DNA of 1,227 bases from Escherichia coli (lineage in GTDB: Bacteria > Pseudomonadota > Gammaproteobacteria > Enterobacterales > Enterobacteriaceae), in the NCBI RefSeq assembly GCF_003334815.1, contig NZ_QOWO01000103.1. One strand, 5' to 3'. This document shows, piece by piece, positions 1 to 1,066 of this stretch. Numbering within the stretch: the stretch's first letter is position 1; every line of letters begins with the position of its first letter. Made by a program: the position numbers and the translations under genes. The notes below the pieces were generated by a model that made no database searches, was not told the origin of the DNA, and saw nothing but the letters and a program-made list of their open reading frames with translations.

Positions 1-1038
1 CGCGTCGTAACGCGTCATCAGTTCGTTCAGGCGTTCTTCTTCCGCCTCCGTCAGCACCGCTTCCGGCTCCGGCAGACTGCGGTATGTTCCGGCATCCTCA
101 CGGCACTCACCGACAGGCTCCATGCGTCCGGCGCACCATTCCCAGCCTTCGGCTTCCCGAAGGTGTTCAGCGACAGCCTGGAGTTTTTCCAGCAGGGCAG
201 CATCGAGCGCAACACAGTCCACATAGCCACCCTCGTCGTCGCTGAACAAATCGGTGCGCAGTTCATCTGGCGAGAAGGCATCAGCCCCCACAAAGCGGAA
301 TTTAGTGTTCCCCGCCACCGCCACTTCACTTTCGGTCACCAGACGACGAATGGTCTGTACATCCGGTTTTCCGCCCCATCCCGACTGGCAGGCGGCTTCA
401 AACACCTGCACCTGACGCGCGGTGTCGTTCTCCAGCGCCAGCGCCTGACAGTGCTCTGTGGTGATGCGGTCTTCTGCCAGCGCATCGAGGATGACAGGCG
501 CAAGGTCTGCCAGTTTCAGCATTCGCTGAACGTGGCGGGGCGAATAGCCCAGCAAATCACCGATTTGTGCAGGCGTTTTGCCTTCCTGCGCCATCGCACG
601 GAATCCGGCAATCTGTTCGGCAGGGTGCATATCCCGACGATGACCGTTTTCAGTCATTGATGCGGCAGTCGCCAGCTCCTGCGGAATAACCTTCACGCGT
701 ACAGGCCAGTCAGCCGGAATGATGCCACGCTCTGCCAGCATGTTGAGTGCAGCCAGTCGGCGACCACCTGCGGCGACACCGTAACGGTCACCAGGCAGGG
801 TATGCACGACCAGATTCTGCAGCAGTCCGACGCCCTTAATGGACTCCGCCAGTTCGCTGACGGACTCCGCAGAATACGGCACCGTGCGCACATTCAGCGG
901 TGATTTAATCAGCGAGGCCAGCGGCACGCTCACTTCCTCCGTCTGCGCCAGCAGGGCAGACAGGACAGTTTCCTGCGTTTTTACAGATTTACGGCTTGCT
1001 TTGCGGGTGGTTTCTGGTTCACACTTCGTTACAGGCAT
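1..1038 (-). CDS. ParB-like nuclease-domain protein (ParB/Srx N-terminal domain plus HTH), N-terminal 346 codons; 3' end runs off the window
   Basis: Hand translation of the reverse complement in the frame whose codons occupy + positions 1-3, 4-6, and so on. That + frame has no TTA, CTA or TCA triplet from 1 to 1131, so the minus frame is open from the in-frame stop at 1134..1132 down to the window edge. The first in-frame ATGs are at 1044..1042 and 1038..1036. An AAGGGG Shine-Dalgarno at 1050..1045 sits 6 nt before the ATG at 1038 and directly abuts the ATG at 1044, so 1038 is preferred. The protein has a GGRRLAA motif (residues 91-97, nt 748..768) resembling ParB box II GERRxRA, preceded by LLQNLVVH, and an HTH-like segment TPAQIGDLLGYSPRHVQRMLKL (about nt 511..576). 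The family assignment is from memory of ParB-family motifs, not a database search. Confidence 0.85.
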   Translation of the reverse strand, partial: MPVTKCEPETTRKASRKSVKTQETVLSALLAQTEEVSVPLASLIKSPLNVRTVPYSAESVSELAESIKGVGLLQNLVVHTLPGDRYGVAAGGRRLAALNMLAERGIIPADWPVRVKVIPQELATAASMTENGHRRDMHPAEQIAGFRAMAQEGKTPAQIGDLLGYSPRHVQRMLKLADLAPVILDALAEDRITTEHCQALALENDTARQVQVFEAACQSGWGGKPDVQTIRRLVTESEVAVAGNTKFRFVGADAFSPDELRTDLFSDDEGGYVDCVALDAALLEKLQAVAEHLREAEGWEWCAGRMEPVGECREDAGTYRSLPEPEAVLTEAEEERLNELMTRYDA

Positions 1039-1044
1039 AATCAT

Positions 1045-1050
1045 CCCCTT
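1045..1050 (-). promoter_or_regulatory. Shine-Dalgarno (AAGGGG) for the ParB-like CDS
   Basis: The minus strand reads 5'-AAGGGG-ATGATT-ATG; the purine-rich hexamer lies 6 nt upstream of the ATG at 1038..1036. Confidence 0.5.
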
Positions 1051-1066
1051 ATAATTGCTTATGTCC

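Follow-up and report, generated by a model that had tools for sequence, protein, structure and literature searches.

Among the systems described so far, the closest to the gene considered here, which lies in a 1,227-nucleotide (nt) stretch of Escherichia coli DNA from contig NZ_QOWO01000103.1 (hereafter the window), is yfjB of the F plasmid. A preprint of 7 July 2026 renames its product HerB and describes a ParB-like clamp that binds cytidine triphosphate (CTP), a 652-amino-acid (aa) homodimer with a novel dimerisation domain (PMC13370423). In that study, the first domain (D1, residues 1–136) binds CTPγS via Box II (G91–A97) and Box III, the latter with E130; D2 (137–235) is a helix-turn-helix (HTH) domain with R168, R172 and K175; D3 (238–417) and D4 (418–652) are without known homologues, and D4 forms a V-shaped domain-swapped dimer (PMC13370423). 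Nucleoid-associated foci of F HerB were reported to need R94, E130, the three HTH residues and D4, and chromatin immunoprecipitation (ChIP) to yield 156 peaks on the chromosome, without a consensus motif, and none on F (PMC13370423). Ectopic expression altered hundreds of host genes, and deletion of herB from F left transfer normal and plasmid positioning unaltered, raised the acquisition cost by ~10% and, in serial conjugation competition, brought a progressive loss; 429 HerB homologues were counted across plasmids of many MOB types (PMC13370423).

Work on related leading regions provides the expression context. In transconjugants, YfjB-sfGFP is seen transiently, ahead of the conversion of the incoming strand to the double-stranded form, and it is undetected in donors; the F yfjB operon is Frpo2-dependent, Frpo2 being a single-strand promoter (PMC9849209). 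IncF, IncI and other plasmids share a conserved ssb-parB2-psiB-psiA cluster; in pED208, a Cre fusion to ParB2 is translocated via the type IV secretion system (T4SS), giving up to 1e-3 recombinants per donor, and a parB2 deletion affects neither transfer nor SOS induction (PMC8406263). On the IncI1 plasmid pESBL, leading-region operons are induced up to ~500-fold at 15 min (PMC12672017).

We conclude that positions 1–1038 (−) of the window very probably represent codons 1–346 of the 652 codons of herB (also yfjB, parB2 or yfhA), a ParB-like leading-region gene of enterobacterial conjugative plasmids; this degree of confidence applies jointly to the identification as herB and to the mechanism inferred from the F orthologue. 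The coding frame, its start, the domains with their intact motifs, the operon context and the orthology with F HerB are directly established. Using the full gene from a plasmid 100% identical to the window, we found 611 of 652 residues (94%) of its product identical to F YfjB/HerB (WP_000117173.1, NC_002483.1 59538–61496), with no gaps. The two proteins have the same length of 652 aa, and both genes have ssb and DUF905/yfjA upstream and psiB downstream. F HerB differs by 41 scattered substitutions, densest in the first ~20 residues, a disordered tail in the F structure, whereas Box II (G91–A97), R94, E130, R168, R172 and K175 are all identical in the window allele. The full-length gene covers at least 80% of each of D1–D4, the level that defines the family in PMC13370423. 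Thousands of plasmid records already include an annotation of this gene, and the function of its F orthologue has been characterised; biologically, there is nothing new in it.

Coding frame and start codon

The first-pass annotation, made from the letters alone, had placed the main gene in a minus-strand frame that is truncated by the window edge and unseen in the supplied track of open reading frames (ORFs). This proved right, with the open frame, homology, substitution pattern and codon usage all in agreement. By translating the whole minus strand, we located just two stops (1179–1177 and 1134–1132) in the frame that follows plus-strand codon positions 1–3, 4–6 and so on. As had been claimed, this frame is stop-free from 1131 down to 1, which amounts to 377 codons. 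Its in-frame ATGs lie at 1044–1042 and 1038–1036, and 1038 nt correspond to 346 codons up to the window edge. The leftward extension that the annotation had proposed was read in a 100% identical plasmid, where the stop lies 921 nt past the left edge and completes a 652-aa protein. The RefSeq product is WP_001145479.1 (652 aa, "ParB/RepB/Spo0J family partition protein"), with its coding sequence (CDS) at 8080–10038 in plasmid pE2863-1 (L001). Lacking a stop within the window, the frame is absent from the ORF list; the four ORFs of at least 60 aa that are listed each overlap it in another frame or on the other strand. The features concerned are:

1–1038 (−): 5′ part of herB, 1038 nt, codons 1–346 of 652 (open frame, RefSeq CDS, F identity, substitution bias)
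51–329 (−): listed ORF
163–660 (+): listed ORF
693–893 (−): listed ORF
839–1054 (+): listed ORF
1045–1050 (−): Shine–Dalgarno (SD) sequence AAGGGG, 6 nt before ATG 1038 and 0 nt before ATG 1044, read from the sequence

Taken at face value, the mechanical list would make one of its ORFs (e.g. 163–660 (+), 165 aa) the real product, or leave the region non-coding: these ORFs are its sole entries, and a plus-strand frame is open for 219 codons (1–657). Length is also a poor guide. Across 2000 shuffles that preserved dinucleotides, the longest stop-free run in any of the six frames had a mean of 182 codons (standard deviation 49) and reached 377 in eight shuffles, so that the openness of the herB frame by itself is just moderately unusual at 58.6% G+C.

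Homology and the substitution pattern are the decisive evidence for the herB frame. We compared the first 346 codons with six diverged plasmid copies (90–95% nucleotide identity) and counted 17/13/57, 16/8/54, 14/9/47, 12/8/32, 6/9/46 and 13/6/46 differences at codon positions 1/2/3, with synonymous codon changes exceeding non-synonymous ones in all six comparisons. The ratio of synonymous to non-synonymous changes was 47/26 in the main frame, compared with 0/32 in the 163–660 (+) frame and 2/17 and 3/13 in two other shadow frames. The exception is the 839–1038 (+) part of the fourth shadow ORF, whose third codon positions fall on those of the main frame and which therefore gave 9/11. ORF 163–660 gains stops in three of the six relatives and ORF 51–329 in one. 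A codon-usage log-likelihood trained on 23 neighbouring plasmid genes, a comparison that had been suggested in the first-pass annotation, scored the main frame at +120 bits and the other five frames at −16 to −127 bits; the four listed ORFs scored +3.3, −9.5, −14.5 and −10.4 bits. None of them had a significant Pfam or NCBIfam match. Stops in relatives, substitution pattern, codon usage and empty family searches together refute the shadow ORFs as products, and we put the chance that one of them is real, or that the region is non-coding, at practically nil. The description of all four as overlapping the main gene thus holds, and neither an in-frame stop nor a shadow ORF with a family match turned up.

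The plus-strand frame from position 1, which runs off the left edge, is an antisense shadow of herB that acquires stops in relatives. The track misrepresents a second gene as well: the upstream DUF905 gene (yfjA) is listed merely as a 27-aa TTG fragment at 1097–1180. The lesson is methodological. When a track demands a stop within the window, the main gene of a short window goes unseen and only its shadow ORFs appear; edge-truncated frames therefore need to be reported.

Two starts, ATG 1038 and ATG 1044, had been left open in the first-pass annotation, with an SD. The herB start is ATG 1038. It is the sole start kept in all 11 other aligned plasmid copies, F included, whereas ATG 1044 occurs in the sequence type of the window only and directly abuts the SD. 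A purine-rich SD is found at the corresponding position in every spacer variant, the RefSeq CDS starts at window position 1038, and the residue numbering of the F HerB paper (PMC13370423) fits this start as well.

Domains, gene neighbourhood and the question of partition

The annotation had also recognised ParB-family motifs in the main frame, and the Pfam search it called for bore this out. ParB_N (PF02195) matched residues 41–131 (E 1e-7) and HTH_ParB (PF17762) residues 136–222 (E 2e-8), and the NCBIfam model TIGR00180 (ParB domain, "partition protein") passed its cutoff (64.2 versus 58.45 bits). By sequence, the closest solved structure is Spo0J (1vz0, E 2.6e-17), followed by ParB and Noc structures down to E 2e-7. 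In the Spo0J alignment, Box II pairs GGRRLAA with GERRYRA, and Box III pairs ENGHRRD with ENLQRED. With the GxRR and ENxxR motifs intact, CTP binding is predicted for the window allele. The encoded parts of the protein are:

631–1038 (−): D1, residues 1–136, disordered N-terminal tail and ParB N-terminal CTP-binding domain (Pfam, Spo0J 1vz0; limits from PMC13370423)
748–768 (−): Box II GGRRLAA, G91–A97 including R94, phosphate-binding GxRR motif (Spo0J alignment; identical in F HerB)
643–657 (−): Box III MTENG, M128–G132 including E130, Mg2+/CTP-hydrolysis ENxxR motif (Spo0J alignment; identical in F HerB)
334–630 (−): D2, residues 137–235, ParB-type HTH DNA-binding domain (Pfam HTH_ParB; limits from PMC13370423)
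514–537 (−): R168, R172 and K175 of the HTH (identical in F HerB)
1–327 (−): first ~60% of D3, residues 238–346 of 238–417, no homology detected to characterised proteins (limits from PMC13370423)

These matches are also what would be expected of a genuine plasmid partition ParB, which binds a centromere on its own plasmid and works with a ParA ATPase, and the TIGR00180 hit and the kinship with the Spo0J and ParB structures point the same way. The similarity ends, however, with the HTH domain: residues ~240–652 gave no Pfam, NCBIfam or Protein Data Bank sequence match, and no ParB C-terminal domain was detected. Whole-protein NCBIfam models stayed below their cutoffs (Noc 62.5 of 315 bits, PRTRC_parB 71.3 of 278.6, PRK13832 41.9 of 640, RepB 20 of 201.5). 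PHROG 7783, of unknown function, matches residues 37–644 at E 7.9e-256. Cryo-electron microscopy of F HerB shows a different dimerisation fold (PMC13370423).

The gene neighbourhood also argues against partition. In pE2863-1, ssb, the DUF905 gene (yfjA), herB, psiB, psiA, a hypothetical gene and ardA follow one another on one strand, matching the order ssb-DUF905-herB-psiB-psiA-ardA on F; the order ssb-yfjA-herB-psiB-psiA-ardA is that of a conjugative plasmid leading region. There is no adjacent parA, the neighbours being DUF905 and psiB in 7/7 full-length copies with annotated neighbours and in F. The ParA gene of pE2863-1 is >9 kb away, and F has its own SopAB. No Spo0J-type parS consensus was present in the 1.2-kb window with up to three mismatches, and a search of the same stretch for repeats and palindromes gave nothing notable. 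The unchanged positioning of F lacking herB and the lack of ChIP enrichment on F described above already largely refute partition for F. For the window gene we regard it as very improbable; the protein is one of the leading-region HerB/YfjB/ParB2 proteins rather than a partition ParB. Judged by the F HerB data, the "partition protein" of RefSeq and the naming in LC567059.1 are functionally misleading.

The naming of the gene varies in other ways too. LC567059.1 lists it as "yfhA: Type II plasmid partioning protein", and another record (H56), matched in two pieces, is annotated as "ParB/Srx family N-terminal domain-containing protein" only. The name "yubM" occurred only in unrelated neuroscience and physics papers and is, for this gene, either wrong or unused.

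Many conjugative plasmids of E. coli and Salmonella contain the whole window at 100% identity. Plasmid records that match over at least 80% of the query number at least 5000, and conjugation is predicted for 4221 of these; among 5426 complete E. coli genomes, 3359 contain a match, with 4736 matched places in total (4676 plasmid, 60 chromosomal). The allele is found on I-complex plasmids such as IncK2/Z; an exact window match is on pH2332-107, an IncK2/Z plasmid of types MOBP and MPF_I. In NZ_OW968278.1 (L010; H58), herB is reduced to a 204-nt 3′ remnant at 2403–2606, flanked by psiB and an intact DUF905 gene, a natural deletion that fits a gene not needed for maintenance.

Predicted operon promoters, spacer hairpins and a variable patch

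Upstream of herB, the right window edge cuts the DUF905 gene, and the spacers of the operon contain hairpins:

1097–1227 (−): 3′ end of the DUF905 gene, last 42 codons and stop (WP_000006024.1 at 10097–10330 of pE2863-1; PHROG 8779)
1067–1090 (−): G+C-rich hairpin between yfjA and herB, 8–9-bp stem, 6-nt loop, no U tract after it (RNA fold)
~10350–10370 and ~8045–8067 of pE2863-1: the other two intercistronic hairpins

Segments resembling the F Frpo2 region lie upstream of ssb in pE2863-1, where 331 nt fold into a long, highly stable single-strand hairpin (−97 kcal/mol, z = −7.8). Three sets of Frpo2-like segments are spread across the leading region of this plasmid (11075–11349, 4939–5006 and 1351–1588), which fits the multiple single-strand promoters reported for IncI1 and F plasmids, although the promoters here are predicted. 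The ssb gene of pE2863-1 (10388–10914) is annotated as frameshifted; it is intact in same-allele plasmids such as pH2332-107.

A perfect G+C-rich hairpin of 7–9 bp follows the stop codon in all three spacers of ssb-yfjA-herB-psiB, each without a U run. Individually, their z-scores are weak (−0.6 to −2.4). The stem of the hairpin at 1067–1090 is invariant in 12 of 12 aligned plasmid copies, the window's included, while its loop and the 3′ spacer vary; we sought covariation in the 11 other copies with their four spacer types, but an invariant stem leaves none to count. The hairpins could act on the transcript, stabilising it or marking it for processing, or they could be structures of single-stranded DNA that affect complementary-strand synthesis and hence the duration of zygotic expression.

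Adjacent to this hairpin, at ~975–1066, the spacer, the ribosome-binding site (RBS) and the first ~20 herB codons occur in at least four unrelated-looking sequence types between highly conserved flanks. Among the aligned plasmid copies, one type is shared by the window and L006, a second by L004, L005, L013 and L014, a third by F and pO157, and a fourth by L011 and L012. The patch corresponds to HerB's disordered N-terminal tail and looks like a recombination or hypervariable cassette. As an interchangeable unit of spacer, RBS and N-terminal tail, it could give plasmid lineages different HerB dosages or different T4SS translocation. That the operon hairpins and the cassette around the herB start are both functional appears unlikely to us.

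Divergence is uneven along the gene as well. Relative to pE2863-1, L003 has 78 differences in codons 1–346 and 28 in codons 347–652, and L006 has 61 and 78. Such discordance between the N- and C-terminal parts among L002–L007 suggests that these copies are intragenic recombination mosaics.

Other signals in the window did not rise above chance. A sigma-70-like site at 1028–1055 (+), antisense to the operon (GTTACA, 16 nt, TATAAT; 10 of 12 matches, 0.4 expected by chance), falls within the variable patch; the other spacer types do not conserve it, and it is probably fortuitous. A terminator scan returned two weak plus-strand sites (961–975 and 994–1008), no more than in shuffled sequences and taken as chance. 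With a permissive threshold, the sole Rfam match in the window was to RsmY, at chance level (14 bits versus a gathering score of 57, E 0.82).

Proposed role and comparison with known systems

By analogy with F, the operon would be transcribed from a hairpin-forming single-strand promoter of the Frpo2 type while the incoming strand is single-stranded (PMC9849209), and HerB would therefore be made transiently in new transconjugants. The protein would dimerise via its C-terminal D4, encoded outside the window. CTP binding and the HTH would then lead to complexes of the clamp type that assemble on the recipient's chromosome and need no parS-like site, and these complexes would alter host transcription and metabolism, lowering the temporary fitness burden of acquiring the plasmid (PMC13370423). 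As on F, HerB would not partition the plasmid. The F orthologue helps newly transferred resistance plasmids establish. Since a near-identical herB allele is present on I-complex (MOBP/MPF_I) plasmids, another major group of resistance plasmids, the F results probably carry over to them.

Several points weigh against this picture. The functional mechanism comes from one recent preprint and from the F orthologue rather than the window allele. The fitness effect reported for F is small (~10% acquisition cost), and the large transcriptome changes come from ectopic expression. The window itself covers D1, D2 and part of D3 only, so that an intact 3′ half of the source copy is assumed, and its first ~20 residues, RBS region and spacer are of another sequence type than those of F. 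In addition, some plasmids carry herB deletions, and the reference plasmid pE2863-1 carries the frameshifted ssb noted above.

A HerB-type clamp might also have been selected mainly for something else, such as protecting or processing incoming DNA, counter-defence, or action as a T4SS-translocated effector. The region is rich in anti-defence genes (ardA, psi genes, antirestriction genes and a methylase), as described by PMC11541004, the ParB2 of pED208 does cross the T4SS (PMC8406263), and the small fitness effect and ectopic transcriptome of F HerB (PMC13370423) leave room for another main role. Against this, the pED208 parB2 deletion alters neither transfer nor SOS (PMC8406263), F without herB transfers normally, and the ChIP peaks of F HerB are chromosomal rather than on the plasmid (PMC13370423). 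A PADLOC search of the protein matched no defence model, in a library without anti-defence proteins. We give such a role only a slim chance and prefer the transient chromosomal clamp.

Compared with the F system, the window allele differs in its backbone, which is MOBP/MPF_I (I-complex, e.g. IncK2/Z) rather than MOBF/MPF_F. The ParB2 of pED208 has the same place within the cluster ssb-parB2-psiB-psiA and is likened to HerB by position alone (PMC8406263). More distantly, canonical ParB/Spo0J proteins (Thermus thermophilus 1vz0, Caulobacter crescentus ParB 6t1f) align with HerB over ~175 residues of the CTP-binding and HTH domains and have the GxRR and ENxxR motifs in common. They differ in their partner ParA and in the ParB C-terminal dimerisation domain, in place of which HerB has ~415 unrelated residues (D3 and D4), and in parS, for which the 1.2-kb window showed no Spo0J-type consensus. 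Structures of Noc (7nfu, 7ol9) are matched at E ~1e-10, yet the score for the Noc model falls far short of its cutoff, as given above. Noc, KorB, BisD, PadC and Osa, the last four likened by description, are likewise ParB-fold CTPases repurposed from segregation; KorB, for example, is a CTP-dependent clamp that regulates transcription. Unlike these repurposed ParB-fold CTPases, F HerB has no identified loading site, dimerises through a different domain and acts on the recipient chromosome.

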